DNA from: Octopus vulgaris
Taxonomy: Eukaryota
Direction of reading: 5' to 3'
Assembly (NCBI GenBank): GCA_951406725.2
Contig: OX597815.1
Span: 128,774,001-128,838,000 of the forward strand
Length of the DNA stretch: 64,000 bases
How positions within the stretch are numbered: the stretch's first letter is position 1; each line of letters begins with the position of its first letter. This document shows positions 5,790 to 50,629 of this stretch, in pieces. The notes beneath the pieces are model-generated. The model saw only the letters and a list, made by a program, of their open reading frames with translations. It was not told where the DNA came from and searched no databases. The position numbers and the translations under genes are program-made.

Positions 5790-6051
5790 TTCTGTTGTGT
5801 CTGGAGAGAGTCATTTTCTTTTTGTGCCTTATAATTTAACACATGACCCAGCCAAATAGTCAAGACTATTGAAAAGGTTGCAAGATGCAATGAAAATTTT
5901 AGGAAAATAAAAATAAGAAATAAGTGGAAATTTTACTGGTGAGTGCGTTAAATTATAAGGCACAAAAAGAAAATGACTCTCCCTAGACACAACAGAATAC
6001 GCTTCAACACACGAACTCATATAAAGAATCTTGCAAACCAAATCTAAAAAC
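5790..6051 (+). mobile_element. Fold-back (Penelope-like) insertion with a hammerhead-like motif
   Basis: Inverted arms ttctgttgtgtct...aatttaac / ttaaattataagg...agacacaacagaa. 13-bp TSD aagaaatattaaa at 5777-5789 and 6052-6064. Confidence 0.7.
5866..5902 (+). ncRNA. Minimal hammerhead-like fold with U3-A8 core variant
   Basis: cta TTGAAAA g gttgc [aagat] gcaat GAAA att t tag. Confidence 0.5.
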
Positions 6052-6685
6052 AAGAAATATTAAAATAATATATCTATTCTTGCACTTTTATTCACATTGT
6101 TTTTTATTAAACTTTCACTACGAACAGAGATGGATAATTTTAAACTTTAAATTGGCTTTCAATGATACATCCACTTTATGTACAAGATATACATTACTAC
6201 TTTAAATTAATACTGCTTATACCGCATGCACATATGCACATGTGCACACACACACACTTTACAGAGTTTTCTTTTGCTCCTCTTTTAAACAATGATGGTT
6301 CCCACCTTTTCAGCCTGCTTTGCAACCAATTCCATGCCCTTGATCAATCCCATGCAAATCTATCCCATTCCATCCAGCCAAGCTCCCCACCCTGCATGCA
6401 CATGTGTACACACACATGCACCAAATGCAGAAATACTTTCAGCTGCTTCAATCAAACAAAGATTTCAGTCCTTCTAACTTTTACTTCTTTCAATCATGGG
6501 TCTGTGGCCATTCTGGGGTACTTCCATGAAGGATTTTAGTCAAATGAATCAAGCCTGGTACTATTTTATTGTACTGATAGGTTATAATGATGTAAAGAGA
6601 CCAACACTGGTTGTCAAGCAGTGTTAGGGGACAAAAACAAACACACACACACACACATATGTATGTATGATGGGCTTTCAGTTTT

Positions 6686-6980
6686 TGTGGTGTTGGCAGT
6701 CAGTGTTATGGGCCGTGATGAGCTATGTGGTGTTGGTGGAGAGGATGACAGATGAGGTGGGCAGAAGTAGGGCTTGCAGGGGCTGGCGGAAGAGTGAAGG
6801 GCGCATGCTTGGCAGGAAGCACGTGTGGTCAGCGAGGAAGCGTGGTCAGTTTCAGCATAGACGGCAAAGCGACAGGACATGTTGAATTTGTGAGAGACCA
6901 TTGATTTCGCCGAAGTAAGGCCTTTTGTATTTCTTTCTCCCCTTGCTTCTTTTTCTGTTGTCCTTTTCCTCCATCACACA
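6686..6980 (+). repeat. 5' LTR
   Basis: Direct repeat of 10611-10906; starts TGTGG, ends CA. Confidence 0.95.
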
Positions 6981-7012
6981 AGCTATTTCGGCTCATAAAA
7001 AAAAAACGAACG

Positions 7013-7717
7013 ATGACTGTTGCCCGTATTTCAAACGAGATAATCAAACCATTTTGCAGTGACACAGATGTAGTCGCTTGGTTGAAGAAGGTGAAGTTGA
7101 TGGCGAAGCTCCACGGTATAAGCGACCTAACGAGTTTTATATCACTGTACTTGGATGGTTCGGCATTGGCACTGTATCTAGAGATGGAAGAGAAGGACCA
7201 ACTTAGCACGGAGAAAATAGAAACCCGGTTGATGGAGGCCTTTGTGGAGGGAATGTTTGAGGCATACGCTCGCTTGGAGAAAACAAGATGGACTGGGGAA
7301 CAGGTTGACGTATTTGCCAATGAACTCAGGAGATTGGCTAAACTGGCAGGTTATGAGGGAGAGTCGCTGGACTGGACAGTTAAGATGGCATTTGTGACTG
7401 GCTTTCCTGACAACATGTCGGTCGAGTTGCAGAAGCTTCCGAACATTCACTCGATGGCGATGGCAGACATTGTATCTCGGGCTCGTGTGCTAGTTTCGTA
7501 CTGCAGAATGACATTGGTAGCAGCGACTGCAACAATGATAGGTGGCCAAGCGAGGAGCAGCAGAGAGGGGTCAAAGAAAGAACGTGTGCGACCATTTAAA
7601 GGACAGTGTTTCCAGTGCCAGGGTTCGGACATGGTGCGAGACTGCGAGTCACCCAAGCCTAAGGTCATTTGCTACCGGTGTCGAGAAACAGCAAATGTCT
7701 GCGGGGAAATGGACTGA
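7013..7717 (+). CDS. gag: Retrotransposon Gag (degenerate zinc knuckles)
   Basis: 234-aa ORF directly after the 5' LTR, with CFQCxxxxxxxxC and CYRC knuckle remnants. Confidence 0.85.
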   Translation: MTVARISNEIIKPFCSDTDVVAWLKKVKLMAKLHGISDLTSFISLYLDGSALALYLEMEEKDQLSTEKIETRLMEAFVEGMFEAYARLEKTRWTGEQVDVFANELRRLAKLAGYEGESLDWTVKMAFVTGFPDNMSVELQKLPNIHSMAMADIVSRARVLVSYCRMTLVAATATMIGGQARSSREGSKKERVRPFKGQCFQCQGSDMVRDCESPKPKVICYRCRETANVCGEMD

Positions 7718-7738
7718 GGGAGACTACTACGCCGGTAG

Positions 7739-10499
7739 TTGTCCCTTTGGATCAATAGAGGCGCGTTTATCGTCATTACCTGTAGTCGACATTCTACAGA
7801 AGTGGTAGAGACGTGGAGTGGAGAAAGCAGCGTAAGAGCAGTTGACGGAAGAGAAGTACACTGTGAAGGCGATACAGATGCCACAGATTGTGATTCAGGG
7901 AATAAGGCTGACACTGCGAGCAATTGTAGTTGGCCATTTGGTGGACGAGATTGACGTGGTGATGGGGATGGATGCAATCACCCGTTTAAGAGGTGTCACT
8001 GTTAACGAGGCTGGTGTAACATTCGGGTTTGTGGGGAAACCGTGTATGGCAAGACCGTGCATTGGTGAGAACCGTGAAGAAAAGCATGCTGCACATGCCA
8101 TTGATGACCAGGATTTTCGGGCTGTCTTCGATGGCCAGAGGTGGACAGTGGAGTGGCACTGGAAGGGAGAGCCCCTGACGTTATAAAATAAAGTGGGCTG
8201 CTATCAGCTTACTCTAAAAGGAGATGCCAGAAGTGAGTTCGAGAGGGAGGTGGAGCGGTGGATTAAGGAGGGTATATTGATCCCTTGGGAAAAAGAAAAG
8301 AGCAGAGTCCTACCACTGATGGTGGTGGTACAGCCCACAAAGCATAAGGTCAGGCCAGTGCTCGACTTCCAAGAGCTGAATGATCAGGTATCATGTCATA
8401 CAGGCGGAGAGGCCACAGATGTCTGCGGAGCCACCTTGCAAGAGTGGAGACAGATGACAGGGGCCTCCATGATTGTCGATTTGAAGTCGGCATACCTACA
8501 GGTGCATGTGGCTGAGAAACTGTGGAAGTATCAGCTTGTCAGATATAAGGGCCGGACTTACTGTCTGACCAGGTTGGGGTTCGGGCTGAATTCAGCGCCA
8601 AAGATTATGGCAACAATTCTCAAGGCCATCCTGGGAAAGGTGGACAGAGTAAAAAGGGTCACCAATTCGTACATTGATGATATTCTGGTGGATGAAACCA
8701 TAATGCCAGCAACAGAGGTCATAGGCCACCTGAAGAGTTTTGGACTGATCGCCAAGCCACCAGAGGCAATGGAGGGAGGTGCTGCACTGGACCTCAAGCT
8801 ATGGAGAGACAAGGCCAGCGCGTTGGTGTTCCGGCGAGGGAACGAGATCCCCGAACTGGGCGCCAGCATGAGTAGATGGGAACTGTTCTTGGTGTGTGGG
8901 AAGCTGGTGGGACACTACCCGATTGCAGGATGGCTCCGGACAGCATATAGCTTCATCAAGAGATGAGACGAAGGAGTGAAGTGGAACGATAGAGTGGGGG
9001 AGAAGACGACCGACATGATACAGGAAGTCTTGGTCAGAGTAAGAGCAGAGGATCCAGTGAGGTGCAGTTGGTATGTTCCCAAATCAAAGAGCGGAATTGT
9101 ATGGTGTGACGCCAGTAACATCGCAATAGGGGTTGTCTTTGAAGTGGGAGGTGTCATGGTGGAAGATGCAGCCTGGGCCAGGAAGACAGATGACTGCAAT
9201 CATATTAATGTGGCGGACTTGGATGCCGTGTTGAAGGGAGTGAACCTAGCCTTGAAGTGGGGGTTGCACATCATAGAAATCAGGACTGATTCGGCCACTG
9301 TACTTGGTTGGGTGACAGCAGTCATCACTAATGAGCGGAGGGTGCAAACCAAAGGGGCCGCAGAGATGCTGGTAAAGCGCCGATTGGGGATACTGCGTGA
9401 ACTAACCACTGAGGTCAATCTGAAGCTGAGCGTGATCTTTGTGCCTTCCGAGAAGAACAGGGCAGACGTCCTGACCAGGGTAAAGCGAACCTGGTTGCAG
9501 GTGCCAGAGGATGCAGAGCAGGCTGTGGCTGCAGTATGCCGTCTGAGTGACTTGGAGTTGTGGAGATTGCATACCATGCATCACATGGGGGTGGACAGGA
9601 CATTGTTCCTAGCCAGAAAAGTTGACTCCGATGTAACAAGACGGAGCGTGCAGAGAGTGGTTAGCAGCTGTGACAGGTGCCAGTCCATCGACCCTGCTCT
9701 GGGCATACATGAGACAGGAAGTATTCCAGTGGACCACGACTGGAAGCGACTGGCAGTGGACATAACACACTACCGGCAGGGGACATACCTCTCAATGGTT
9801 GACTGTGGACCAGAGCGGTTCGCCATATGGAGGGAGATGAAGACGGGGACTGCAGAGGAAATTGTGAAAGTATTGAATGAGATATTCCTGGAACGAGGCC
9901 CCGTGGATGAACTGCTTCTGGATAATGGCACTGCATTTCGCTTGGAGGTGCTGAAAGAAATGCTTGGTGGGTGGAAGGTCAACCGCTTCTTCAGGGCAGC
10001 ATACCAGCCAAGTGGAAATGGGCTGGTGGAAAGGCATCATCATACCATCAAGACCATGGCAGAGAGGGGCCACATTTCACCAATCGAGGCTGTATTTTGG
10101 TACAATATGTCGCCCAGATCAAGACAGGCTGAGGAGTCGGTGCCACACAGGGCAATATTCAGGTACGAGTGGAGGCATCCGTGTACTGCATCAATGCGAC
10201 CCGGGGCAGAGGAAGAGCATGCCTTCATGCAGGTCGAGGAAGAAGTTTGGGTAAAACCCCCAAATGCGCGGTGTACATCACAATGGGGAAAGGGAACAAT
10301 AACCTCCATAAATTCGAAGAACAACATCTCTGTCGATGGTATGCCACGCCACATTTTGGATATACGGAAGATTGTCCATGCCTCAGAGGATGGAACCAGC
10401 AGCAGTGGGAAAGAAGATGAAGACAACATCAGTAGACAAGATGATAAAGCCAGCAGCAACATGCCAGGAACCCAGGCCAGTTCTAGGGTCGCACTGTGA
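7739..10499 (+). pseudogene. pol: Disrupted pol (protease, RT, RNase H, integrase)
   Basis: RT motifs DLKSAYLQ, FGLNSAP and YIDD. RNase H motifs CDAS and TDS. Integrase HHCC (HTMHH...CDRC) and D,D,E (AVDI, LDNG, VER). In-frame stops at 8184-8186 and 8964-8966 plus a frameshift in the protease region. Confidence 0.92.
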
Positions 10500-10610
10500 C
10501 CAGAGGGAGCAGCACCCTGGTTGGCTGATTATGAAACCAGTTAAGGTGTGAGTTCGGGAGCGGGGAGTGAGTGGGAAAGCCGGTTGAGTGATCTGTAGAT
10601 CAGGGGGACG

Positions 10611-10906
10611 TGTGGTGTTGGCGGTCGGTGTTATGGGCCGTGATGAGCTATGTGGTGTTGGTGGAGAGGATGACAGATGAGGTGGGCGGAAGTAGGGCTT
10701 GCAGGGGCTGGTGAAAGAGTGAAGGGCACATGCATGGCAGGAAGCACATGTGGTCAGCGAGGAAGCGTGGTCAGTTCCAGCATAGACGGCAAAGCGACAG
10801 GATGTGTTGAATTCGTGAGGGACCGCTGATTTCGCCGAGGTAAGGCCTTTTGTATTTCTTTCTCCCATTGCTTCTTTTTCTGTTGTCCTTTTCCTCCATC
10901 ACACTA
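10611..10906 (+). repeat. 3' LTR
   Basis: Direct repeat of 6686-6980; preceded by agggggacg (PPT-like). Confidence 0.95.
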
Positions 10907-11097
10907 CAGTTTTCATCTATCAAATTCACTCACAAGGTTTTGGTCAGCCTGGGGCTATAGTAGAAGACACTTGCCCAAGGTACCAGACAGTGGAACTGAA
11001 TCTGGAACCATGTGGCTAAGAAGCAAACTTCTTACCACACAGTCACGCCTGTGCCTATAATGTTCCTTCTATTAAACACAAGTATCATGCCCCAGGT

Positions 11098-11390
11098 GGA
11101 GGCACATGGTCTAGTGGTTAGAGCAGCGGACTCGTGGTCGAGGGATCACGGGTTTGAATTTCTGACTGGGTGATCTGTGTGTTTATGAGTGAAACACCTA
11201 ATCTTCATGAGGTTTCTGCAGAAGGTAATGGTGAACTTCTGCTGACTCTTTCGCCACAACTTTCCCTCACTCTTTCCTCTCGCATCTATCATCTCACCTG
11301 CGATGGACTGGTGTCCTGTCCTGATGGAGAACCTATACACCAAGGAAACCAGCCCTATGAGCCAGGATTGGCTCGAGAAGGAACAAACAT
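11098..11390 (+). mobile_element. tRNA-derived SINE family D
   Basis: tggtctagtggttagagc head; homologous to 58063-58355 on the minus strand. Confidence 0.75.
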
Positions 11391-11391
11391 C

Positions 11392-11580
11392 ATGCTTGCT
11401 TCCATATTCACCAAACTCTTCAAACTTTTCCCTTTCTATGGGAACATTTGGAAGCACATCTCAGTGTGTCCCATTTCAAAGAAGGCAACCCCTATGACCC
11501 ACCTAAATATCATCCAAAAACTCTCACTCCTAACATCTCTTAAGGTAATGGAGACAGTCATTAACAATGATGTTCTTCCA
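11392..11580 (+). mobile_element. LINE RT fragment (CR1/Jockey-like)
   Basis: WKHISVCPISKK and KVMETVINN resemble non-LTR RT domain 1. Confidence 0.6.
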
Positions 11581-13611
11581 TGGCACCATACTGGTAGTCA
11601 CTGAGGAGAGAGTCATACTCCAACTTCTGTACCACAGGCCTGCTGTCTCTTCTGTCTTTTCTGACTCTACTAAGATGCCCTCTGTTCCTTGGAGCTAGTT
11701 GGGTTCAAATACCCAGCACTCAGACACCTTGATCCACTCGGTTTTCTATTTCTCTTGATGCCCTCCACCTCACTTGGCTCCCTGCTCTATCATGCCCAGT
11801 CCTTTCTCTCCAGAACATCAGTCCTCTGGATTCTTCCTGCTTATGTTTTTCCTGCAGTTGTTGACCAACAACACTTCCAACAGAGCAATAAGAATATCAA
11901 AGTCTCCAGTCTCAAAGGGCCTACAAAGGTCATGAGTAATACAGAGGATCAGCATAGGCTAAAAAGAAATGAAAAAAAGCATGTCGTGCTGGATGTGTAA
12001 TACTAGCATTCCAGAGAACAACAAAGAACAAAGAAGCTAAGAAAAACAGAAGAGGAATCAGGTGTAGTTTGCAAAAAAAAAAAGACTGTGCTCATATGAA
12101 TATGTAATGCATATGGAAGAGGATAGCTGTATCGAGCATTCTGAGTAAATGGAAGTCAGGATGAGGGAAATTGAAGAAGACTTGGGACAGATCTGAAGCT
12201 GTTATAACACATGAAGAATATAAGAAAGGGCAACATGGACACAAGGACTGGAGGCAAATGATGTGTGAGAAGATCCACTCACCTGTCCAGAGTTGGTGCA
12301 ATGAATGCAAAAATTATGGCATATTTATGCATACACACACATACACATATGTGTGTGTGTAGACTGACTATCACCATGCACATATATGTGTGTTTGTATG
12401 TATGTGCACACATGCATTTGTAGCTGTCTACTGTTAAATCTACACCCTTGATCTCTTTCATAGCTTCTTACACCTCTAACACCCATATCACTGTTACCCA
12501 TGTTTCTTTAAGCCATGACTTTATCTCTCTTGTTCTTCCTGCTCCTATTGCTCATCTCTGATTCACTCTATCTTTGTCTCAAACTCACTGTCAGCGTATT
12601 CTGTCGGTGTAACTAAGAATGGCAATGCATCTCTCCAGCTCATCACATATAACACACGCACCCATGCTTTTATTGCTCATTTTCTGCTTGCCGTACATCA
12701 CAATCTTTCAGCCACACTTATCACATGTCTATCAATCACTTCCTTGTCTTCTTAATTCCCTATGCTTCCAATAAGTCCGAGGATGGCAGTAGATCTCTTC
12801 TGTTTGACACACATTACTTTCACTGTAACTAAGTATGTTGTTGCACTTATTCTGACCCTTTCCCCAATGCTCCTTTTAGCCACTCACATGTACAAGACCC
12901 ACCTATTTCCCATTTTCCCTGCAACCTTTCACATCACTTGTCCCCATCACATATTCTGTGTATAGGTGACCACTTGTTCCCAGTTCTCTCTATTTCCTTC
13001 TCCACCCCCTTATACTGTTTGTCATCACCACATATCATTCTGATTACCAGAATACTCTCGTTCTTTCTTTCCTATGTACTTTAAACCTCTGTCATCACTC
13101 TCTCTCCCTTTCTTATGGGTTACATACACCTCTGTCATCCATTCTACATTGCATTGCCTTGAATATACACACCTATCTCAGAATTGTATACTTTCCTTAT
13201 TACATATGCACCTCATCACTAATTTTTCTGCCTCCATCAGATGTGCTCCACATATGTAAAAAGGCTGATGAGAAAAGAAAGAAAATGAGACTGTGAGGTC
13301 TCTTTACTTATGTCAAGGTCATGGTACCACTTTCGTTCTGGTGCCACAAAAGATGCACCCAGTACACTCTGTAAAGTGTGAGATGGTAAGATGTTTTTAG
13401 TTTTATCAAGGATATGATATCTCTCTGGTGTTACTAAAAGAGCATCTTGTACACTCTATAGTGGTTGGTCTTAGGAAAGGCATCCAGCCATAGAAATCAA
13501 GCCAAAGATAAAGCATGAATGCAATAAAGTGCCCAACCCATTTACATGAGAAGGATCCCCTAAATATGTGCTAACTCTGACAGTGAAATCCACCCAACCT
13601 ATACCAGCATG

Positions 13612-13944
13612 AAGGCGCATGGCTCAGTGGTTAGAGCGTCGAGCTTACAATCGTGAGGTTGTGAGTTCGAATCCTGGACTGGGCTGCATGTTGTTATCTT
13701 GAGCAAGACACTTTATTTCATGTTGCTCCAGTTAACTCAGCTGTAGAAATGAGTTGCGATGTCACGGGTGTCAAGCTGTATCGGCTGTTTCCTTTCCCTT
13801 GGGTAACACTGGTGGCATGGAGAGGGGAGGCCGGTATGCATGGGCGACTGCTGGTCTTCCATAAACAACCTTGCCCGGCCTTGTGCCTGGGAGGGTAACT
13901 TTCGAGGTGCAATCCCACAGTTAGTCATGACCGAAGGGGGTCTC
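13612..13944 (+). mobile_element. tRNA-derived SINE family C
   Basis: A box tggctcagtgg, B box gttcgaatcc. 11-bp TSD ataccagcatg at 13601-13611 and 13945-13955. Confidence 0.85.
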
Positions 13945-14047
13945 ATACCAGCATGGAAAGCAAATGTAAAATAGTGATGAAAATATAACATGCATAACAA
14001 ACTACTAAATATGCAATGAAATATATGAAAAATACTAGACAACTAAC

Positions 14048-14223
14048 CTTATTGACTCTAACAATAAAGCATGGTTTGCCAATGGAAAAACCAAAATTAG
14101 TTTTCTTATTACATAATGAATTGTTAGGGAAAAGAGCTGATCTTTTTAGATGTTTAACATAATCAGCTTTATCTGCTAGTATATTACAAGTCCCATCATC
14201 ATGACATTCTATGCCATGTTTCT
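14048..14223 (-). CDS. ATP1B: Na+/K+-ATPase beta subunit, coding exon 4
   Basis: Splice context tttcag|...|gttagt. Encodes KHGIECHDDGTCNILADKADYVKHLKRSALFPNNSLCNKKTNFGFSIGKPCFIVRVNK, matching the family FGFxxGKPCxxxxxNK motif. Phase 1-0. Confidence 0.93.
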
Positions 14224-14439
14224 CTGAAATGAAAGTAAAACAATTAGATATAGAATAATAAGTTCAAGTATCAACACACTTGTTGATGAAAGAAAACAAT
14301 AAATGATATGAGATCTACTCTACTTCTGCTACTAATATAAATCAATACAAATATAAAAGATTTCCACTTTGTTTTGACTTTAAAAATCTGTGACAGTAAC
14401 TTCTTTGCAGGAAACAAATATCTGAAGTAATACTAATAT

Positions 14440-14645
14440 GGTAAGCTGGCAGAATCATTAGCAAGCTAGGCAAAATGTTTTGCAGCATGTCACCCATCTT
14501 TATGTTCTGAGTTCAAATCCACCGAGGTCAACTTTGCCTTTCATTCTTTTGGGGTAAATAAAATAAGTATCAGTTGAACTCTGTGGCTGATGTAGTCAAC
14601 TTATCCCTGCCCCTGAAATTTCTGGCCTTGTGCCAAAATTTGAAA
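14440..14645 (+). mobile_element. SINE family B
   Basis: agctggcagaa...gagttcaaatcc head and tgtgccaaaatttgaa tail. Confidence 0.75.
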
Positions 14646-15914
14646 TACATATTTGAAGTAATACTTCAATTATTAGCAAAACTAGAACTAACAAGCAGAA
14701 TCCTTGGTATGGTCATGTGATGCATATGGATGAGGATAGCTGCATAAAACATACTGATCCATAAATGTGTATGGAACCTGTAAAAGAGATAGACCCAGGG
14801 AGACATAGGACAAAGCAATGAAAAGTGACCTTCAGATGTTGAGCCTCATAGAGATGACAAAGAACTAAGATGATTAGTGATTTGCTGTGCTTGGGAAGAT
14901 ACACTTATCTAAGCAAAAATGAGGCCCTGAAAGCACATTGTTCATTTTCATGTCCCTCTCTCCAACAACTCCTCCCCCAAACATCCTCCCTCCCTCCATT
15001 TGTGCTCACAACTCACTGCATTCCCTCACCTCTACCTCCTACACTTTTACAAACTTATGTGATCACTCACTCCGTCTTATCTTCTGTATCACTTATACAC
15101 CCCTCCCTTGTCAGGGTGTATCCCAATATCTTCAACATCTCCTCTCCCTGCTTTTTTAACTGGGGTAGCTATATATCTCCTCTACTGCAAGACATTTGTT
15201 TCTATCCCTCTATCATACTCTAACCTCTCATCCCCTGACATAAAACCTCATCACCTCAATACGACTGCCTCCTCAATCAAAGAGTCTTGTCTTGCTAAGC
15301 AACCTCACCGATGCTGGTGCCATGGAAAAAGCATCCAGTACATTCTACAAAATGTTTCATGTTAGGAAGGGCATGCAGCCATTGAAAGCAGTGAGTAGTG
15401 TTTGTTGCAGTCAGCTCCTGTCAAAGTATCCAACCTATGCCAGCATTGAAAACAGACATTAAATGATGAGGACTGAAAGCAATCACTTCTAGGAAGCTGA
15501 GCACTTTGAATGAACCCAAAAATATTCAAAGAAAAGGTTCTGCTCTAATTACACAGAAAAAAGTATGGACTCTGCAAACTGCAGCAAAGTAACCCATTTA
15601 GAAGACTTTGGATAGGCATTGATGGAGTGAATAAAAACTGACAGAGCATAGATAAGACAGCTGAAGAATTCTGATGCAGACACCCCTCTGTGTTTTTATT
15701 GTGTTACTGACAGCAGAACCCACGTTCTAAAATGGTTGGGCATAGGAAAAGCAACTAAGTGAGAAAGTCATGATATACATATATATACAATAGCAAAGAT
15801 TGGTAATTGGTTAGTTATCAGTTACCATATGTGCCAGAGGAAGAACCTATCCACCCATGCCAATGTAGAAAAAAGAGCATAAAATGAGGAATGTGATGAG
15901 GATATGAATCATAC

Positions 15915-16019
15915 CTTTAAGTTCCCTGTCAATCATTGATATATATGGGGCAGCATTATGCATGTCTTTTACTTTATAGTATATAAGACCGTCAGTATCT
16001 ACAGGCATAACAACTAAAC
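15915..16019 (-). CDS. ATP1B: Na+/K+-ATPase beta subunit, coding exon 3
   Basis: Splice context ttaatgcag|...|gtatga. Encodes (G)LVVMPVDTDGLIYYKVKDMHNAAPYISMIDRELK(E), completing the PGL motif. Phase 1-1. Confidence 0.88.
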
Positions 16020-16215
16020 CTGCATTAAGGAGAAATAAGATATTATAAATATTTTAAAACTATTTAAATCGTTGAAATTCATCAAATAATTCATTGGCAA
16101 CTAGTAAAATTCAAAGTCAGTAGTAAGAAGTAGTCAAAAGATAACTGTAAAATATATTTTTCATCTCTGTCTGATGACATTTTAAGTGTTTTTATTGTTT
16201 CTTAATGCTACATGC

Positions 16216-16232
16216 AGAGAGAGAGAGGGGGA

Positions 16233-16271
<39 letters not shown>
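16216..16271. repeat. (GA)n microsatellite
   Basis: Direct reading. Confidence 0.95.
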
Positions 16272-16273
<2 letters not shown>

Positions 16274-16931
16274 TTGAATGTTTATAATATTGAAGGTGTC
16301 AAGATATCTCTGGAGAAGTTTTAATGGGTGAAATAAAAAAAGCAAACCTACAGCTATTTCTGAAATGAACATGCCTACAGCAAAATAGAGGCAGTGATTA
16401 TCAAAATCATCATCATCATCATCATCATTCATCATTTAATGTCCATTTTCCATGATGACATGGGTTGGATGGATTGACAGGAGCTGATCAACTGAAGGGC
16501 TGTTCAGGCTCCCTGTCTGTTTTGGCATGATTTCTATGGCTGGATGCCTTTCCTAATGCCAACCACTTTACAGAGTGGGTGTTTTTCACAGCACTGCCAC
16601 AGGTGTTTTTTCAGTGGTACCACCACCTATGAGCCAGCAAGATTAGGGATGCTCAGCTGGAGAGGGTTGCAGGGTATGACCCTGTATGCAAGGACAACCA
16701 TGCTTTTACTTAGCTTAACATGTCTAAGTAAAAGTGGTTGTCCTTACATACAAGTTCATACCCTGCAAACCTCTTCAGCTGAGCATCCCTAATCTCACGG
16801 GCTTGTAGGTGCTGATGCCACATAAAAACACTCATACTAGTGCTGCGTAAAAGAAGTCCATTGCAATCAAGCAGACCAATAATCAAAGCATTCCATCCAT
16901 GACCATCCTGTATTTCCAGATACATTGAGAA

Positions 16932-19301: not shown

Positions 19302-19383
19302 CTGAAAATAATAGAATTGATTATCAGTAATTTAAAGCTTCTATTTTTTATAAATTACATTGCATAAAAACTGTATTTGCAGA

Positions 19384-19788
19384 TTCTTTTGTGTCTGGGG
19401 AAAGTCATTTTCTTTTTGTGCCTTATAATTTAACACACTCACCAGTAAAATTTCCACTTATTTCTTATTTTTATTTTCCTAAAATTTTCGTTGTGTCTTG
19501 CAAACTTTTCAATAGTCTTTCAATACTATTGAAAAGGTCGCAAGACGTAACGAAAATTTTAGGAAAATAAAAACAAGAAATAAGTGGAAATTTTACCGCT
19601 ATTGAAAAGGTTGCAAGACACAACAAAAATTTTAGGAAAATAAAAATAAGAAATAAGTGGAAATTTTACTGGTGAGTGTGTTAAATTATAAGGAACAAAA
19701 AGAAAATGACTCTCCCCAGACACAACAGAATATGCTTCAACACACAAACACACATAAAGAATCTTGCAAACCAAATCCAAAAACGAAA
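19384..19788 (+). mobile_element. Fold-back (Penelope-like) insertion, same family as 5790-6051
   Basis: Inverted arms of about 130 bp plus an internal 73-bp tandem duplication. 12-bp TSD tgtatttgcaga at 19372-19383 and 19789-19800. Confidence 0.72.
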
Positions 19789-30843: not shown

Positions 30844-30949
30844 GTGCCTATTGTATATTTTTACTTCTGACTTATAAGAATTTCTGATCCCCCACACCCC
30901 TAAAATACAAATTCAATATTGTTCTGAAAAGATTAACTACAGGGAAGGT

Positions 30950-33771: not shown

Positions 33772-36658
33772 CTAGCAGTATCGCCTGGCGTTGCACGGGT
33801 TTGTAAGGGAAATAATTATATAAGCATTTTTAGAGATGTAAAGTATAATAGCCATCTCAATATGGCTAACCCCAAAGGGGGGGGTTACTGTAGCTTTTTA
33901 CGCTCTAAGATTTAATAATAAATTTTTAGAGAGTTACTTCCCTTATATATGCCAAAAATGCATTAAAAATGGGAAAAATTGATGGTAAATTTTTTTTTAA
34001 ATCGTAGACTCATCGTAGACGCGCGCTAATACCCAGAAGGGCTCGATATGAATCACGACTATAAGATACCCGGTTTTGGTTAAACTGCACCGCAAAATGT
34101 GGGAGTAGTTAGGAATCTAAATCGTAGGAGACAGACAGCACACAACCTCACTTTTATATATAAAGAAGATATATAACACATATGTATACGATATATGGAT
34201 AATACAAAACCATATCTTCTTCTTTATATATAAAATTGAAGTTGTGTGTCTGTCTCCTACGATTTAGATTCCTAACTACTCCCACATTTTGCGGTGCAGT
34301 GTAACCAAAAGCGGTGATTCATATCGAGCCCTTCTGGGTATTAGCGCGCGTCTACGATGAGTCTACGATTTAAAAAAAATTTTATCATCATTTTTTCCCA
34401 TTTTAAATGCATTTCTTTGCTATTATATAAGGGAAGTAAACTCTCTAAAAATGTATTATTAAATCTCAGAACGTAAAAAGCTACAGTAACACCCCCCTTT
34501 GTTGTTAGCCATATTGAGATGGCTATTATACTTTACATCTCTAAAAATGCTTATATAGTTATTTCCCTTACAAACCCGAGCAACGCCGGGCAATACTGCT
34601 AGTCTTTATATATAAAAGTGAAGTTGTGTGTCTGTCTCCTACGATTTAGATTCCTAACTACTCCCACATTTTGCGGTGCAGTGTAACCAAAAGCAGGTAT
34701 CTTATAGTCGTGATTCATATTGAGCCTTCTGGGTATTAGCGTGCGTCTACGATGAGTCTACGATTTAAAAAAAAATTTTATCATCATTTTTTCCCATTTT
34801 AAATGCATTTCATTGCTATTATATAAGGGAAGTAACTCTCTAAAAATGTATTATTAAATCTCAGAACGTAAAAAGCTACAGTAACACCCCCCTTTGTGGT
34901 TAGACATATTGAGATGGCTATTATACTTTACATCTCTAAAAATGCTTATATAGTTATTTCCCTTACAAACCTGAGCAATGCCGGGCGATACTGCTAGTCT
35001 TTATATATAAAAGTGAAGTTGTGTGTCTGTCTTCTACGATTTAGATTCCTAACTACTCCCACATTTTGCGGTGCAGTGTAACCAAAAGCAGGTATCTTAT
35101 AGTCGTGATTCATATTGAGTCCTTCTGGGTATTAGCGCACGTCTATGATGAGTCTACGATTTAAAATTTAAAATTGTAGACTCATCGTTGACGCGTGCTA
35201 ATAGCCAGACGGGCTCGATATGAATCACGACTATAAGATACCCGAATTTGGTTAAACTGCACCGCAAAATGTGGGAGGAGTTAGGAATCTAAATCGAAGG
35301 GGACAGACACTCACACAACTAGAGTTTTATATATCTACTAGCAGTATCGCCCGGTGTTGCTCGGGTTTGTAAGGGAAATAACTATATAAGCATTTTTAGA
35401 GAGTTTCTTCCTTTATAGATGCCAATTCGGGCTTTCTTAGCCATTTCTGTTTTGGTGTCTTCAAGCCATGAAGTCGTTGTTCTAAAAGAACGCTGGTCTC
35501 CTTGACAACGCATTACGACGTTGATTTCCTTACACTCCCTTCCCCACAGCTTCACGAGGGAGGGAAGAAGGGGAGAAGCAAACACAGGTGCAGGTGTTTG
35601 AGCGTGGACGCCAACTCCGCCGCCATCGACACACAAAAAATTATGCATTAAAATGGAATAAAAAATGATGTTAAATTATTTTTAAAATCGTAGACTCATC
35701 GTAGACGCGCGCTAATAGCCAGACGGGCTCGATATTAATCCCGACTATAAGATAAAACTCTAGTTGTGTGAGTGTCTGTCTCCTACGATTTAGATTCCTA
35801 ACTCCTCCCACATTTTGCGGTGCAGTTTAACCAAATTCGGGTATCTTATAGTCGTGATTCATATCGAGCCCGTCTGAGTATTAGCGCGCGTCTACGATGA
35901 GTCTACGATTTTAAAAATAATTTAACATCATTTTTTATTCCATTTTAATGCATAATATTTCGTGTGTCGATGGCGGCGGAGTTGGCGTCCACGGTCACAC
36001 CTGCACCTGTTTGCTTCTCCCCTTCTTCCCTCCCTCGTGAAGCTGTGGGGAAGGGAGTGTAAGGAAATCAACGTCGTAATGCGTTGTCAAGGAGACCAGC
36101 GTTCTTTTAGAACAACGACTTCATGGCTTGAAGACACTGAGTCAACGATTTAAAAAAAAATTATCATCATTTTTTTATTCCATTTTTAATGCATTTTTTT
36201 GCCATAACTCTCTAAAAATGCTTATATAGTTATTTCCCTTACAAACCCGAGCAACGCCGGGCGATACTGCTAGTCTTTATATATAAAAGTGAAGTTGTGT
36301 GTCTGTCTCCTACGATTTAGATTCCTAACTACTCCCACATTTTGCGGTGCAGTTTAACCCAAACCGGGTATCTTATAGTCGTGATTCATATCGAGCCCTT
36401 CTGGGTATTAGCGCGCGTCTACGATGAGTCTACGATTTAAAAAAAATTTAACATCATTTTTTCCATTTTGATGCATTTTTTCGCTATTATATAAGGGAAG
36501 TAACTCTCTAAAAATGTCTACGATGAGTCAACGATTTAAAAAAAAATTTACCATAATTTTTTTCCCATTTTTAATGCATTTTTTTGCTATAACTCTCTAA
36601 AAATGCTTATATAGTTATTTCCCTTACAAACCCGAGCAACGCCGGGCGATACTGCTAG
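33772..36658. mobile_element. Cluster of about 8 non-autonomous Helitron copies or fragments in both orientations
   Basis: Copies: 33772-34166(-), 34221-34602(+), 34603-34997(+), 34998-~35164(+, truncated), ~35168-35334(-, truncated), 35338-~35753(-), ~35753-36273(+), 36274-36658(+). They share the TCTTTATATATAAAA 5' end and the hairpin-CTAG 3' end. Confidence 0.88.
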
Positions 36659-38095
36659 TTGAAATATAAATCCTAAATAATAGTCATGATTCTTCCATAA
36701 TAGAAGTTTCTACAAAAGAAGGACAAAGCAAACAATAAAGAAAAAGAGAAGAGAAAATAAAGTAAAAAACTAGCAACGAAGCACGAAGTGCTTCAATTGG
36801 TCGCACACCAAAATGTTCAACGGAACCTACTGAAGCAAGCCAGCACGCTCATTAGAATTCTGTTAAATGACTAATATGTCTGAGAGAATAAGAGAGATTA
36901 ATAGAAGCAGAATAATAAAGAAACCGAATCATGTCCCACACCTGAAAAGTATATCTGTCTATATCTATGTATATACTTCAACGATGTCGAAGACCATGTT
37001 TGTTCTGTTTCTCCGTATGTAATACACCTAAAATAATTTCAAGTAAAACAATTTTCTCATAAACTTAATAAATGACAGCATGAAAACACATATTTAAAAA
37101 TAAAAAAAAAACAAACAAAAACGTCAGAATTTTATAACTTGTAAGAAAAATCAATCTGAAGAATATGTCGGAAATAATTATTGTCAGTTTTGACAGTAGT
37201 TGCACACTAGCATTAAAATAATGAGATTAATCAACGCTCGAAAGTGAAGCATAAAAACTTATTTCTGAATATTTCTTCATTCTTTTCACAACATACCAAA
37301 CGCATTTTAAAGTTGAAACTTTATAGATCACCTTACATAGGTTTCCACAATGGTCGAACTAAAATGGTTTTCGGTGTTCCCTCGTTAACTTTTTACTTGT
37401 CATTTTCATTTCTTCCCAATTACACTCCGAAGCACATGCACATGTAAACAACTATATAAAACCCTCTTTCCCCCGACAATGTCAGCGATCTTTTATTTTT
37501 TGATCCGTGATCATAAAATGAAACTCGACACTAATCATAATAACTTATCAACGAAACGAAAGAGAATGTTATCTGGAATCATTGACTCTAGAATGATGAA
37601 GCCTATTATGATTTATCTCTGTACGTGAAGTCCTAATAAGCAAATGATAGCAAAACGGTTAACATGCTGTATACAGTCGTAAAAAAAGTAAAAGTAAGAT
37701 GTCCTAAAAAATCGCCCCGAAAGTGACAACACTGACATCCCAAAATTCCATGAAAAGAATGAAAACTACCTCATTATGTCACGTCCACAGGCACTTTACA
37801 CGTATAATGAATTCTAACGATGTTATATATTATACAAATACACCGTTCGAACACACTATACCCAACAACGAATATTTAATTTACCGAGAAAGCAATTAAA
37901 TCGATGATTTGCATGTCAGCATGCTAGCAATAATCCTGCACGGTTAATGGACGGTAGTAAAGTAACGGACGGGAAAATGGTGCTGTTACTGTGGATTTAC
38001 TAAAACTATACGAGCTAGGATTAAATTTTTTTCTTTCTTTCTCATATGGGACTTCACTAGGAGTTTCAAATAAGAATGTGGGCGTAGAGACCCAT

Positions 38096-38511
38096 GATCT
38101 TTTCGGTTTGAACGGCAGTATTTTCTAGCGGTGTCATATGAAATTGTCACCCATAATAATGACCCTAGTATCGATCTATTGCATTTCAATCTGTTTTAGG
38201 GTTAGGTTTAGGGGTAGGCGGAAGGGTATCTTTTTTTCTTCAGAAATGTAAATAAACCCAATATGTTTCTTAAACGAGGGACATATTCATACGGCACAGA
38301 ATGTTTTCACCTCAATAGACGTCATTGATTGGTTGAAATCGCAGAAATTGAAGAAAAAACAACAACAAATATCTTACAAACTATAGAATTTTCTCAATAA
38401 AGCCAAGAGAAAAAGATGTTTTATAAACACATTCTACCAGTATACGAAGTTTAAAAGTGTTTAGTTACGTGGAAATTATTTTAAAAAACTGCCGTTCAAA
38501 CCGAAAAGATC
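38096..38511. mobile_element. MITE with 24-bp perfect TIRs
   Basis: gatcttttcggtttgaacggcagt at 38096 and its reverse complement at 38488-38511. Internal ttaggg-like tract. Confidence 0.8.
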
Positions 38512-38892
38512 CCAATATAAAGCTCGTCCACCTTCAGGTTTCACCCTGTGCAATCCAGTAGTAAGTATTATACGTACTTCCAGATTTGCGTTTGACCATC
38601 AAATTGAAATAACTACAATTGTTTCCACGCAACATAGTTCTCCAGGCATGCAGGGAAACGCTTGCATAATTAAGTACCTGTACGCCTGGAGAACTACGTT
38701 GTGTAGAAACAATTGTAGTGATAGAAAATAAATGTCCAACCATACTCCTTCTTGTTGACTCCATATTATTTCAATTATAGATATATAAAATTAAATACTA
38801 ATCACTTTAGTTTTCAAAATATAATTGTTCACATAACATATATATATATATATATATATATATAGATGTAATATGAATGAGCATGTGTGTGA

Positions 38893-39186
38893 GGGAGCAT
38901 GGCTGAGTGGTTAGGGTGTTGCACTCACGATCTAGCGATCATGATTTCAAATCCTAGATCGGATGGTGCGTTGCGTTCATGAGTAAAACACTTCATCACA
39001 CGTTGCTGTGCGATCACTTCGACATCTGCTGCGTGACACAGTGCACTCGCTCAGACAACGTCGATTTGATGGAGAGAGTGAACTAATGGGCGACACGAAC
39101 ATTTGATCACTATAAACAAATCATTTGCGCGGGTCATTCGGCAAAAGCTGAACGCTCATCGGTCGTCTTGGACGAGAGAGTCCAAC
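38893..39186 (+). mobile_element. tRNA-derived SINE (CpG-rich)
   Basis: tggctgagtggttagg A box, ttcaaatcc B box, (ac)n tail. Confidence 0.7.
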
Positions 39187-39600
39187 ACACACACAGATCA
39201 AGATTCGAGTGAATCTGGGACTTACATAGTAAGGCACCGAGTAGGGTTGAAAAGTAAAATGCGTATACAACAAAAATAGACGAATACATATGCGGGTACC
39301 GAAGTACAGGCAGAATGATATCCAGGTTATGTATACGATTAACTATACCTGATTGAGCATATCGTGAGCCCTGAGGCTAATCAGAAAACATCTATTGCAC
39401 TAGATGTATGGTCCATAATATACTTCGGATCTACAGAAGAAGCTGGTCCCGAATGAGGTGAATAATAAATAAATAAAGACAGATGAATAATGTGTCAATC
39501 CACTACAGCTGTTTCCAGACATTACATCATCAGAAAAAAACGTTTTCTTCAGGTGAATACATGAATCACAACATGTTAATACTAAATCAAATTTCACAAA

Positions 39601-39670
<70 letters not shown>

Positions 39671-39671
<1 letters not shown>

Positions 39672-40704
39672 TAGCAGTATCGCCAAGCGTTGCTCGGGTT
39701 TGTAAGGGAAATAACTATATAAGCATTTTTAGAGAGTTACTTCCCTTATAGATGCCAATTCGGGCTTTCTTAGCCATTTTTGTTTTGGTGTCTTCAAGCC
39801 ATGAAGTCGTTGTTCTAAAAGAACGCTGGTCTCCTTGACAACGCATTACGACGTTGATTTCCTTAAACTCCCTTCCCCACAGCTTCACGAGGGAGGGAAG
39901 AAGGGGGAGAAGCAAACACAGGTGCAGGTGTTTGAGCGTGGACGCCAACTCCGCCGCCATCGACACACGAAAAATTATGCATTAAAATGGAATAAAAAAT
40001 GATGTTAAATTATTTTTAAAATCGTAGACTCATCGTAGACGCGCGCTAATAGCCAGACGGGCTCGATATTAATCACGACTATAAGATACCCGAATTTGGT
40101 TAAACTGCACCGCAAAATGTGGGAGGAGTTAAAAATCTAAATCGAAGGGGACAGACACTCACACAACTACAGTTTTATATATATAGTATATATATATATA
40201 TATATACTAGCAGTATCGCCCGGCGTTGCTCGGGTTTGTAAGGGAAATAACTATATAAGCATTTTTAGAGAGTTATAGCTTGCCTTATAGACGCCAATTC
40301 GGGCTTTCTTAGCCATTTCTGTTTTGGTGTCTTCAAGCCATGAAGTCGTTGTTCTAAAAGAACGCTGGTTTCCTTAACAACGCATTACGACGTTGATTTC
40401 TTTACACTCCCTTCCCCACAGCTTCACGAGGGAGGGAAGGGGGAGAAGCAACAGGTGCAGCTGTGAGCGTGGACGCCAACTCCGCCGCTATCGACACACG
40501 ATGCATTTTATGCATTAAAATGGAATAAAAAATGATGTTAAATTATTTTTAAAATCGTAGACTCATCGTTGACGCGCGCTAATACTCAGACGGGCTCGAT
40601 ATGAATCACGACTATAAGATACCCGAATTTGGTTAAACTGCACCGCAAAATGTGGGAGTAGTTAGGAATCTAAATCGAAGGGGACAGACACTCACACAAC
40701 TACA

Positions 40705-40751
<47 letters not shown>

Positions 40752-41220
40752 TATATAAGCATTTTTAGAGAGTTATAGCAAAAAAATGCATTAAAAATGG
40801 AATAAAAAATGATGATAATTTTTTTTTTTAATCGTTGACTCAGTGTCTTCAAGCCATGAAGTCGTTGTTCTAAAAGAACGCTGGTTTCCTTAACAACGCA
40901 TTACGACGTTGATTTCTTTACACTCCCTTCCCCACAGCTTCACGAGGGAGGGAAGGGGGAGAAGCAAACAGGTGCAGCTATGAGCGTGGACGCCAACTCC
41001 GCCGCTATCGACACACGATGCATTTTATGCATTAAAATGGAATAAAAATGATGTTAAATTATTTTTAAAATCGTAGACTCATCGTTGACGCGCGCTAATA
41101 GTCAGACGGGCTCGATATGAATCACGACTATAAGATACCCGAATTTGGTTAAACTGCACCGCAAAACGTGGGAGGAGTTAGGAATCTAAATCGAAGGGGA
41201 CAGACACTCACACAACTAGA

Positions 41221-41235
<15 letters not shown>
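39671..41235 (-). mobile_element. Three tandem non-autonomous Helitrons separated by (TA)n
   Basis: Copies 39671-~40186, 40207-~40710 and 40751-~41235 (the last lacks the 3' hairpin). Same family as 3972-4465. Confidence 0.87.
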
Positions 41236-41260
<25 letters not shown>

Positions 41261-41594: not shown

Positions 41595-42795
41595 TTAGGT
41601 TGGTTCACATGAAATGTCACATTTTTAATTACTTGTTATTTCAGTCATCTAAAAACTCAGTTATGTATACCTTGCATTTAATCTTGACTCGTACCTACAG
41701 ACCTTATGAAAATGATAATAACCAAACTATGTTGAGTGATTTTCTCGTATGAGTACAAACTGGGTCACTCTGCCGCAGAAGCTCTACGGAATATAAAGCA
41801 GACCTTTGGTAATGGTTTTGTTGACATCAAAACTGTTCAGAGATGGTTCCAAAGCTCTCGTTCAGGAGATGATAGCCTTGAAAATAAACCAAGGGGTATG
41901 CCAAAAGAAATTATTCAGCATGGTGGATTAAATGCTTTGGTTGAACAAAATCCGAGAACAAAGGTTCGAAAACTTTCATCAGAACTCCAAACATCTTGCA
42001 CAACTGATTTTGGATACCTGTAAAAAATTGGAAAAGTCAAGAAACCAGATAGGTTTGTTCCACATCAACTAAACGAGATTAAATAAAAAAGTCGCCCAGA
42101 AGTGTGCTCCTTATTGCTTTCTCGACTGGAAAAAGACCATTTCTGCATCAAATCATTACTTGTGATGAAAAATGGATACTCTTTGACAACAGCAGGAAAA
42201 CAGGACAGTGACTAGATGCAGGACTACCCAAACCCATCATTGCCTCCTAAAACGTTTGTGGCCACTGTATGGTGGTCTGAGAAGGGAGTTATTGATTATT
42301 CATTTTTGCAACAAGGAAAAACGGTAACAGCAACATCGTATTGCCAGGAAATTGATTGTATGCATGAGAATTTGAAAAAGAAGCAACCCAGACTAGTCTA
42401 TAGAGATGGCCCGATTTTGTTCCACAACAATGTATGTCCTCACACTCCTCAGGCTACGGTCCAAAAGTTACAAAGCATGAATTATGAAATTTTGCAACAT
42501 TCTCCCAATTCCCCTGATATATCTCCTACTGATCAGCACTTAAGCAAAACTGAGCTTTTCATAAGCGACAAAACATTCTTAAATACAGAAGAGGTATTTG
42601 AAGCATTCGGACAGTCTAGCACAGTAAACGATGATTTTTTTCTTATTAAAGATGGAATACATGACAGAGAAACGCTGGGTAAACGTCATAAATGAACATG
42701 GATCATACTTTGATTAAATAAATCAGTTCTCTAACACTTTTTGAAACATTTTATTGTTATCTTTCAAATACGACAGTCTATGGGAAACAGCCTAA
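41595..42795 (+). mobile_element. Full-length decayed mariner (Tc1/mariner) transposon
   Basis: Imperfect TIRs ttaggttggttcacat / atgggaaacagcctaa, TA on the left. Transposase remnants YEYKLGHSAAEA..TVQRWF, TCDEKW, TVWW, SPDISPTD with stops and frameshifts. Confidence 0.9.
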
Positions 42796-44742: not shown

Positions 44743-44758
44743 ACACACACACACACAT

Positions 44759-44827: not shown

Positions 44828-44829
<2 letters not shown>

Positions 44830-45450: not shown

Positions 45451-45490
45451 CGCTAAGATTAAACTGAGTTAATTAATATTCTGTATATTT

Positions 45491-49228: not shown

Positions 49229-49229
49229 T

Positions 49230-49263
<34 letters not shown>

Positions 49264-49792
49264 GCATACACACACATATATGTACATATGCACAGGTATA
49301 CATATTTACATATAATTTTTATTCTTTTCATTTAGACTGGTGAAATCAGAAGTCACTTTTTCCATTTGAAGCTGTGTAGTTTGTTGTGAAAATACAAAGT
49401 TCCATCAGACTTTGGTTATGAGGAGTAAAGTTTGAGCAAAGTGCTGAGTGGAAATTTGTAACAGGAGACATAGTAGGTAGGTAGAGAGAGAGAGAGAGAG
49501 ATGTTGGTAATGAGTGTACTGGAGCAAAGATGTCCTGTAGTTTGCTATTTCATATGAGGAGATGCCATTAGAGTCACGGCCAAAGCGACAGAGAGGAAAC
49601 AGGATTTGTTTTTGTTTAGCTGCATGTCACTCCTTATCAAGATCAATATCTATGATAAAAGCTATACCAACCACGATTACTTCATCTATCCTTTAAAACA
49701 GAGGTTCTCAACAAGAGTCCATATGACCCTTAAGGGTCCATATAAGAGTTTGTTAAAATTCATCTGAAATAAGCGGGTTATACTTCTACAAT

Positions 49793-50040
49793 ACTCTTTT
49801 ACTTGTTTCAGTCATTTGACTGTGGCTATGCTGGGGCACTGCCTTTAGTCGAGCAAATCGACCCCAGGACTTATTCTTTGTAAGCCTAGTACTTATTCTA
49901 TCGGTCTCTGCTGCCGAACTGCTAAGTTATGGGGACATAAACACATCAACATCGGTTGTCAAGCGATGTTGGGGAGAGAAACACAGACACACAAACATAT
50001 GTACACACACACACACACACATATATATACACACACACAC

Positions 50041-50093
<53 letters not shown>

Positions 50094-50246
50094 GGCTTCT
50101 CTCTGTTTCTGTCTACCAAATCCACTCACAAGGCTTTGGTCGGCCTGAGGCTATAGTAGAAGACACATGCCCAAGGTGCCACGCAGTGGGACTGAACCCA
50201 GAACCATGTGGTTGGTAAGCAAGCTACTTACCACACAGCCACTCCT
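49793..50246 (-). mobile_element. SINE family A nested in the hAT MITE
   Basis: Full-length copy with expanded (TA)n. Confidence 0.85.
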
Positions 50247-50312
50247 ACACAAAATATTTTAATAATTACTTCTATGTAATTCCTAACAAAATTTAATTAT
50301 AAAAATATAAGA

Positions 50313-50629
50313 CAATTGCAGTGTGGAAGGTTTTTATAAGCCATTTAAAAACACATAAAAACCGTTAGATTCACTTCAACATTTAAATTTAATTTGCCAA
50401 AATATTTTCATCACTTTGAGATGCAGCATAGAATTTTGTCACTGATCAGGTCGCGGTCTCAAAGTGACGAAAATATTTTGGCAAATTAAATTTAAATGTT
50501 GAAGTGAATCTAACGGTTTTTGTGTGTTTTTTAATGGCTTATAAACACCTTCTATGCTGCAATTGTTTTTGTTTCAGCACATGATCTCTGATCAAGTCAC
50601 TTGCTATGCAAGTACATCTCCGTAATATA
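50313..50629 (+). mobile_element. Fold-back Penelope-like insertion with a hammerhead-like motif
   Basis: Inverted arms of about 110 bp (50313-50421 and 50457-50566) followed by a short tail. Confidence 0.68.
50435..50485 (+). ncRNA. Minimal hammerhead-like fold (3:8 pair mismatched)
   Basis: tttgtca CTGATCA g gtcgc [ggtctcaaa] gtgac GAAA atatt t tggcaaa. 7-bp stem I, 5-bp stem II. Confidence 0.5.

Follow-up and report, generated by a model that had tools for sequence, protein, structure and literature searches.

Which ribozyme cores do the fold-back repeats of an octopus genome carry, and could any activity of theirs have been of use to the elements that bore them? We address this question in a 64-kb window of Octopus vulgaris DNA (contig OX597815.1, positions 128,774,001–128,838,000; ‘the window’ is this whole stretch), an AT-rich, repeat-dense piece of animal DNA with four fold-back insertions, at 5790–6051, 19384–19788, 30950–31287 and 50311–50623 (hereafter the 5.9-, 19.5-, 31- and 50.4-kb insertions). 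Together they contain seven hammerhead-like copies of the type I minimal layout. We consider it probable that the insertions are old, 5′-truncated ends, likely of three families of Penelope-like elements (PLEs), with minimal hammerheads predicted to cut only as dimers and with positions 3 and 8 of the core paired as G3–C8 (50.4 kb), C3–G8 (31 kb) or U3–A8 (5.9 and 19.5 kb).

Hammerhead copies and their 3:8 pairs

Downstream of the core, every copy has a single additional purine and a 5-bp stem II, and these lead into a GAAA box, a palindromic segment and U17. The core reads TTGAAAA in four copies (5869+, 19529+, 19602+ and 19512−), CTGAAGA in two (31177+ and 31037−) and CTGATCA in one (50442+); the corresponding palindromes are AAUU, ACGU (in one arm) and AAUAUU, and the stem I helices have 3, about 5 and 7 bp. 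When positions 3 and 8 are left free, a strict descriptor finds two sites in the window (5869 and 50442), far above the mean of 0.05 sites per window in 100 block-wise dinucleotide shuffles, which gave no site with a Watson–Crick 3:8 pair, and the layout is therefore not a product of chance. A relaxed scan allowing two defects returns six sites, comprising five of the seven copies and a weak site at 38450, which we rejected as a hammerhead because G5 is absent; both 31-kb copies are missed. The stem II pair G10.1–C11.1, the extra nucleotide and G12-A13-A14-A15.1 are present at the family level, single copies being damaged.

Positions 3 and 8 form a Watson–Crick pair in all four TTGAAAA copies (U3–A8) and in both CTGAAGA copies (C3–G8); the 50.4-kb copy has C at both positions, a mismatch. 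The first-pass annotation had listed CTGATCA as a third core pair. We rejected it as a functional core, and three different 3:8 pairs (C–G, U–A and G–C) are obtained not from the cores as then given but from family-majority letters at the 50.4-kb site.

These letters come from contigs of four public sequencing runs, coded as four organisms (4 of 24 listed), that match 50290–50650 at 80% likeness (16,812, 13,412, 5,949 and 8,395 contigs per run). Position 3 (50442) is G in 97.7–99.0% of depth (98.1, 97.7, 99.0 and 98.0% in the four runs, from 122, 121, 105 and 120 contigs, counting to at most 128), and C8 has no variant of at least 10%. The same holds for U4, G5, A6, A9, the GAAA box, the palindrome and U17 in all four runs, and position 7 (50446) is A in 97.8–99.2% of depth. 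Read with the majority letters at positions 3 and 7, the core of the family becomes GUGAACA, in which G3 can pair with C8, and the CTGATCA of the window is a decayed copy of it. The majority letters also complete the helices: C at 50465 (92–95%) makes stem II fully Watson–Crick (GUCGC/GCGAC), and A at 50481 (59–80%) turns a U–G into a U–A pair in the 7-bp stem I. Positions polymorphic at 10–90% in any run number 1/42 in the structural part and 19/138 downstream (one-sided Fisher p = 0.028), a contrast that gives modest support, as it is depth weighted, depth is lower in the 5′ half and rare variants are lost from contigs. The sole structural polymorphism, 50481, is a U–A/U–G switch that stays paired either way.

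The G3–C8 family is plainly abundant and common to all four organisms. Other copies end at 50312 and at 50625–50629 and are followed by unrelated flanks; loose ends before 50312 were counted in 50, 76 and 44 contigs in three runs. Both arms of the 50.4-kb copy carry the same family-minority letters (50413 and 50465); either the template was already variant or the arms were homogenized later. The window copy's changes at 50442 and 50465 have a further effect: they complete an alternative local hairpin (50434–50473).

Apparent kinship of the U3–A8 and G3–C8 families

The first-pass annotation had described three dissimilar families. This stands for the C3–G8 family, whose homology to the other two we rejected because random stretches score equally high in 373 and 2656 of 3000 cases, but the families of the 5.9/19.5-kb and 50.4-kb insertions align along the whole arm. 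They have the same geometry, with 128 nt (U3–A8) and 124 nt (G3–C8) from position 3 to the start of the tail. Their sense arms align end to end with 104/199 and 107/202 identical columns (52–53%), and the whole-arm DNA score is matched by 0/3000 random window stretches; the score of the part downstream of the motif alone is matched by 6 and 4 of 3000.

Both families have an ATG 92–104 nt downstream of position 3, and the frames that begin there align on one ungapped diagonal with 9/22 identical residues between the unaltered copies. The DNA of these frames is identical at 13, 16 and 9 of 22 first, second and third codon positions, respectively. In one run (X1), five majority letters fall in the frame stretch, four of which add identities (one by removing a stop) and none of which loses any; with majority letters, tail-peptide identity rises to 11–13/22 depending on the run (both are hand counts). 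In a frame-by-frame test, the 19.5-kb copy beats all 1399 controls (0/1399). The ATG-frame peptides matched no known PLE protein in protein searches, and the frames appear, from these alignments, to be the start of homologous PLE open reading frames (ORFs). No comparable frame with an ATG is established for the C3–G8 family. The U3–A8 and G3–C8 families likewise appear to be homologous.

If the two families are homologous, their motifs differ by four paired changes: the 3:8 pair itself (U–A versus G–C), stem II pair 3 (U–A versus C–G), stem I pair 2 (U–A versus C–G) and stem I pair 3 (C–G versus U–A). The remaining four of five stem II pairs and an unusual extra G are common to both. This comparison was made by hand, with the four window copies as the U3–A8 side; pairs were not counted from an automatic alignment of the seven motifs, in which the cores came out misplaced. 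Four paired changes between sister families point to selection on the ribozyme fold. We tentatively propose, rating the chances a little under even, that a G3–C8 hammerhead works naturally in a high-copy animal retroelement family whose sister uses U3–A8. A two-transversion gap in the core would then have been crossed and three helix pairs changed in step, so that activity would have been selected in the PLE life cycle, and counts based on CUGANGA and UUGANAA would miss a further class.

Insertion anatomy and origin

The features of the four insertions are as follows.

5777–5789, no strand: left target-site duplication of the 5.9-kb insertion, 13 bp; right copy at 6052–6064
5790–5843, minus strand: inverted 5′-truncated U3–A8 arm without hammerhead, mirroring 5944–5997 with 3 mismatches in 54 columns
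5866–5902, plus strand: minimal hammerhead, UUGAAAA, with extra G, 5-bp stem II, GAAA, AAUU palindrome, U17 and 3-bp stem I
5973–6051, plus strand: ATG-started frame, 24 codons to the stop, putative start of the parent ORF; includes the tail, 5998–6051 (54 nt)
6052–6064, no strand: right target-site duplication, 5.9 kb, 13 bp
19372–19383, no strand: left target-site duplication, 19.5 kb, 12 bp; right copy at 19789–19800
19384–19519, minus strand: inverted U3–A8 arm; hammerhead 19515–19479 with G10.1 to U
19522–19598, plus strand: partial tandem copy, U3–A8; hammerhead 19526–19562 with stem II mismatch
19599–19788, plus strand: sense U3–A8 arm; hammerhead 19599–19635 with G12 to A; tail 19731–19788 (58 nt)
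19706, plus strand: ATG in the 19.5-kb sense arm, its frame open to the element end
30938–30949, no strand: left target-site duplication, 31 kb, 12 bp; right copy at 31288–31299
30950–31088, minus strand: inverted C3–G8 arm; hammerhead 31042–30997 with broken palindrome and C11.1 to U
31122–31287, plus strand: sense C3–G8 arm; hammerhead 31172–31217 with G12 to A; tail 31263–31287 (25 nt)
50312–50419, minus strand: inverted arm of the G3–C8 family, truncated within the motif, no core; outer end common to many other copies
50435–50485, plus strand: minimal hammerhead motif, C3:C8 in the window copy (decayed), family majority GUGAACA; family parts are an extra G, 5-bp stem II, GAAA, AAUAUU, U17 and 7-bp stem I
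50534–50623, plus strand: ATG-started frame resembling the U3–A8 frame; includes the tail, 50567–50623; family 3′ ends at 50625–50629

The in-copy stop of the 50.4-kb frame (50582–50584) is an arginine codon in 80–89% of family depth.

All four insertions have an inverted arm that does not extend to the 3′ end, so that one side alone bears a tail (54, 58, 25 and 57 nt), and a partial tandem is found in one of them (19.5 kb), where its copy sits 73 nt upstream of the next. The hammerheads lie 110–186 nt from the 3′ end. Exact target duplications flank three of the four insertions (13 bp at 5.9 kb and 12 bp at both 19.5 and 31 kb); matches of at least 12 bp occur in 5/400 random flank pairs. The 5.9- and 19.5-kb insertions, which are independent members of the U3–A8 family, share an identical tail-less end 128 nt from position 3, and their arms vary in length (54 bp versus about 134 bp) and also differ at the apex. 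CpG-type changes account for 12 of the 30 arm-versus-arm mismatches.

Because each of these features (a truncated copy in inverted orientation, a partial tandem, a tail on one side only, duplicated target sites and a hammerhead near the 3′ end) fits a PLE end, the insertions are likely PLE termini, as the first-pass annotation had proposed; the anatomy bears this out, and no reverse transcriptase (RT) or GIY-YIG gene is linked to them. PLEs have been described with truncated copies in inverted orientation, with partial tandems and with a tail on a single end (PMC8557442); the tail, which is called unique to PLEs, reflects two sites within the beginning of the ORF at which the RT can start (PMC11167929). 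In the O. vulgaris genome, PLEs make up 6.83% of the sequence in 190 families, and hammerheads are unmentioned in the accessible parts of that report and its supplement (PMC13282606).

We propose the following course of events. The element RT would have been primed at a nick in host DNA and begun at either of two fixed sites in the first part of the ORF, giving ends with or without a tail. Once copying had ended close to the hammerhead, addition of a second copy in inverted orientation would have yielded the fold-back. In tandem transcripts of the parent element, two motifs could pair through their palindromes and be cut after U17, probably with help from the element protein. If position 3 must pair with position 8, both letters would have changed together. 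The predicted cut site lies downstream of the start of each sense arm, which argues that uncut RNA was the template.

Four of the five sense arms start 3–25 nt upstream of position 3 (at 5862, 19522, 19599 and 50417), and the 31-kb one starts about 55 nt upstream; in these few cases, copying looks as if it tends to halt just beyond the hammerhead.

Several observations qualify or weigh against reading the insertions as PLE ends with formerly active hammerheads. First, the shared layout noted in the first-pass annotation extends to four insertions and seven copies, but only 5869+ retains all features together with a Watson–Crick 3:8 pair. The other six are decayed: G12 has become A at 19602 and 31177, G10.1 has become U at 19512, stem II contains a mismatch at 19529, the palindrome is broken at 31037 and the 3:8 pair is C3:C8 at 50442. 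Several of these lesions fall at CpG sites. The layout earlier ascribed to the 31-kb insertion does have its CTGAAGA core in two copies, but is a composite of two damaged arms, with AAAA instead of GAAA in the plus copy and ATGT instead of ACGT in the minus copy. Of the 67 Rfam matches with E values up to 1, none is to a hammerhead family, although decayed minimal motifs without stem III may fall outside the Rfam hammerhead models. Second, the U3–A8 and C3–G8 family cores come from four and two window copies only. For the G3–C8 family, contig depth is not copy number, contigs fitting both arms bias the counts where the arms differ (positions 3 and 7 are exempt, having no mirror copy), and the conserved majority may reflect merely the sequence of one master copy. 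Third, the 7-bp flank match of the 50.4-kb insertion is not above chance (77/400 random pairs reach 7), and in the frame-by-frame test 79/1406 controls score as well as the 5.9-kb copy, both arms being AT-rich. Fourth, no ORF with a telomerase-like RT and a GIY-YIG endonuclease is evident among window frames of at least 110 aa (four of which were scanned for families). Exact pattern scans gave 0 matches for G3–C8 in metagenome, genome and viral contigs, for C3–G8 in metagenome contigs and for U3–A8 in genome contigs, collections that are mostly prokaryotic or viral and whose blanks carry little weight; protein searches based on peptides of the arms and tails returned no PLE protein. The link to PLEs encoding GIY-YIG and RT that the first-pass annotation had called for was thus found in none of the window frames, contig scans or protein searches; the three family motifs and two peptide words are also absent from the PMC8557442 supplement. 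Finally, the minimal hammerheads of PLEs cut poorly on their own in vitro (PMC4209133) and one study found cleavage needless for PLE insertion in vitro (PMC11167929).

The copies in the window are, on fold predictions, most likely inactive fossils. In predicted read-through transcripts, 45, 42 and 32 of 49 nt pair outside the motif in three fold-backs, and 6/49 do so at 5.9 kb; the motif would thus be buried in a long hairpin in 3/4 fold-backs, making cutting by these copies unlikely. Folds of the single motif are uninformative, being no more stable than shuffles (z −0.2 to −1.4).

Among the alternatives, the one that survives best, although we regard it as unlikely, is that the insertions are non-autonomous, retrozyme-like or short interspersed element (SINE)-like derivatives of PLE ends, in which short fold-back or tandem units were moved in trans by PLE protein and no full-length parent is left. 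The very many short copies with shared ends (5,949–16,812 contigs per run) fit such a history, and retrozymes lacking long terminal repeats (non-LTR retrozymes) have been proposed to derive from pseudo-LTRs (pLTRs; bioRxiv 10.64898/2026.07.22.740005). It also gains from proteins matched by the 31-kb arm peptide, which had 1 and 19 protein matches, two of them named Octopus bimaculoides proteins. The 31-kb repeat is 77–83% identical to predicted proteins of that species, these matches look like chance translations of repeat copies, and no RT or GIY-YIG family occurs among the 18 of the matching proteins that were scanned. Four of them (P0007, P0010, P0017 and P0019) have ~42-residue repeats resembling the 31-kb arm read in frame, which suggests head-to-tail arrays of a related C3–G8 motif with ~126 nt (~42 codons) per unit, a layout that would suit dimer cleavage. 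By contrast, arm length and apex differ within one family (54 versus about 134 bp), as expected of separate truncations, contig depth falls about a hundredfold at the 50.4-kb apex (50420–50432), and the tail has an apparent ORF start. This alternative would, moreover, alter the vehicle and leave the hammerhead reading intact.

Still less probable, in our judgment, is that the insertions are PLE ends whose G3–C8 motif is a dead relic, left over from amplification of a master copy whose ribozyme was crippled, insertion needing no cleavage. Catalytic mutants had no effect on insertion in vitro and C3G/G8C rescue was partial only (PMC11167929), Naiad PLEs thrive without canonical hammerheads (PMC8557442), and the minority letters shared by the 50.4-kb arms imply that imperfect templates may have been copied. 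A relic would, however, have no reason to reach a Watson–Crick 3:8 pair through two transversions while its other core letters, stems and palindrome were kept, and would not account for four paired differences from the sister family; the structural positions are, moreover, depleted of polymorphism.

Least of all do we credit an origin as miniature inverted-repeat transposable elements (MITEs) or foldback-type DNA transposons whose hammerhead layout is a chance feature of AT-rich hairpins: despite the long inverted repeats, Rfam matches limited to hairpin-like microRNA models below thresholds and the unremarkable stability of single-motif folds, we rejected it as already largely refuted, because the inverted repeats are neither flush with the duplication (25–58-nt one-sided tail) nor of fixed extent, a partial tandem is present, the descriptor chance rate is 0.05 per window and the family majority letters complete the motif rather than erode it.

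Known hammerheads and other features of the window

Much of what we describe has precedent. PLE minimal hammerheads with an extra nucleotide, opposite-strand pairs and U3–A8 cores were reported by Cervera and de la Pena (2014; PMC4209133), with about 1,300 U3–A8 matches in Schistosoma mansoni found by a dedicated descriptor, and natural U3–A8 also appears in Perreault et al. (2011; PMC3088659). Tandem PLE hammerheads are described as cutting when paired as dimers through their palindromes (PMC4209133; review PMC6765202). The first-pass annotation was thus right that U3–A8 is a natural covariant missed by CUGANGA searches, but this had already been published (PMC4209133, PMC3088659). G3–C8 itself is encountered in the literature searched only as an engineered mutant: a C3G/G8C change partly restores cleavage in a PLE hammerhead (PMC11167929), and engineered G3–C8 is also covered in a review (PMC8495972) and a remark (PMC3884650).

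Like the minimal hammerheads of PMC4209133, those in the window have a short stem I, an extra nucleotide between 9 and 10.1, G10.1–C11.1, a palindromic 15.1–16.1 segment, frequent U17 and mostly truncated copies, and they occur as opposite-strand pairs, there 100–700 bp apart. Our U3–A8 family has its UUGAAAA core and 3-bp stem I in common with the S. mansoni(4) row, which is PLE-linked, and the Drosophila rows have 6-nt palindromes, as does our G3–C8 family. There are also differences: a G3–C8 core is not among the Fig. S3 rows examined, which list no cephalopod; the printed descriptor fixes the core to cuganga and so cannot match G3–C8; the extra nucleotide is G in two of our families, whereas the published consensus is not-G, with Nasonia as an exception; and the published examples include ORF-linked copies, whereas ours are not ORF-linked. 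The parallel with PMC3088659 lies in natural 3:8 covariation to U3–A8 and in palindromic, weak stem III helices in repeats, for which dimers were proposed; G3–C8 is not reported in the part of its text examined.

Another close counterpart is Poseidon_Ac (PAc), a PLE of Anolis (Frangieh et al. 2024, PMC11167929). In PAc, too, the repeat holds a hammerhead and, after it, the beginning of the ORF; the RT can start at two sites there, so that some ends have a tail and others lack one, and uncleaved RNA is the main template. The ATG lies at stem II in PAc, whereas it is 92–104 nt downstream of position 3 here, and tails measure 30–40 nt in PAc versus 25–58 nt here. Moreover, G3–C8 in PAc is an engineered double mutant with partial, protein-assisted activity, whereas here it is the natural majority, with cutting predicted only.

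PLE minimal hammerheads, U3–A8 and opposite-strand pairs are, in short, already known, and two of our three core variants are published. A very large set of PLE-linked hammerhead variants was reportedly compiled by Lunse et al. in 2017. We found no report of a natural G3–C8 hammerhead in the literature searched, whose scope left out Lunse et al. 2017, Arkhipova et al. 2017 and repeat libraries; searches on octopus hammerheads likewise showed none, and the accessible parts of PMC6155905, PMC7229834 and a 2026 retrozyme preprint contain nothing on natural G3–C8. An abundant animal family with a natural G3–C8 core, together with its likely U3–A8 sister, is thus apparently new, with cutting predicted only, and under-counting by published descriptors, which the first-pass annotation had suspected for U3–A8, is plausible for G3–C8.

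More broadly, the 3:8 pair is kept, with different letters, in two apparently related families that also differ by paired changes in their helices, which argues for selection on the active fold. If G3–C8 hammerheads do work, ribozyme activity would be under selection even though cleavage seemed dispensable in vitro. The families provide a natural series of C–G, U–A and G–C pairs from one genome that can be compared side by side, and they show which descriptor positions genome surveys should relax.

The remainder of the window holds several other elements. A Gypsy-like LTR retrotransposon occupies 6600–10900; stop codons interrupt its frames (gag-like, RT, RNase H and integrase), and near-identical frames at 6614–6973 and 10383–10898 mark its two LTRs. 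Nested direct and inverted copies of another repeat family, 85–99% alike and ending in (TA)n, lie at 33760–41240 and 3956–4466; this cluster (repeat families D6, D10, D11, D13, D15 and D19), which may resemble Helentron-type elements, has no hammerhead in the relaxed scan. Further fold-backs at 16582–16852 and 38609–38722 are 78% and 76% self-complementary and lack a hammerhead layout in the same scan. A Mariner-type transposase fragment (PF01359, E 5e-15) is found at 42216–42695, and a 593-codon acidic open frame on the minus strand at 61727–63508 is probably a large host exon. Finally, an abundant SINE-like family with internal (CA)n(TA)n (D7–D9) is present in at least eight copies, at 1–117, 10854, 25798, 30649, 45712, 47000, 50050 and 53215.

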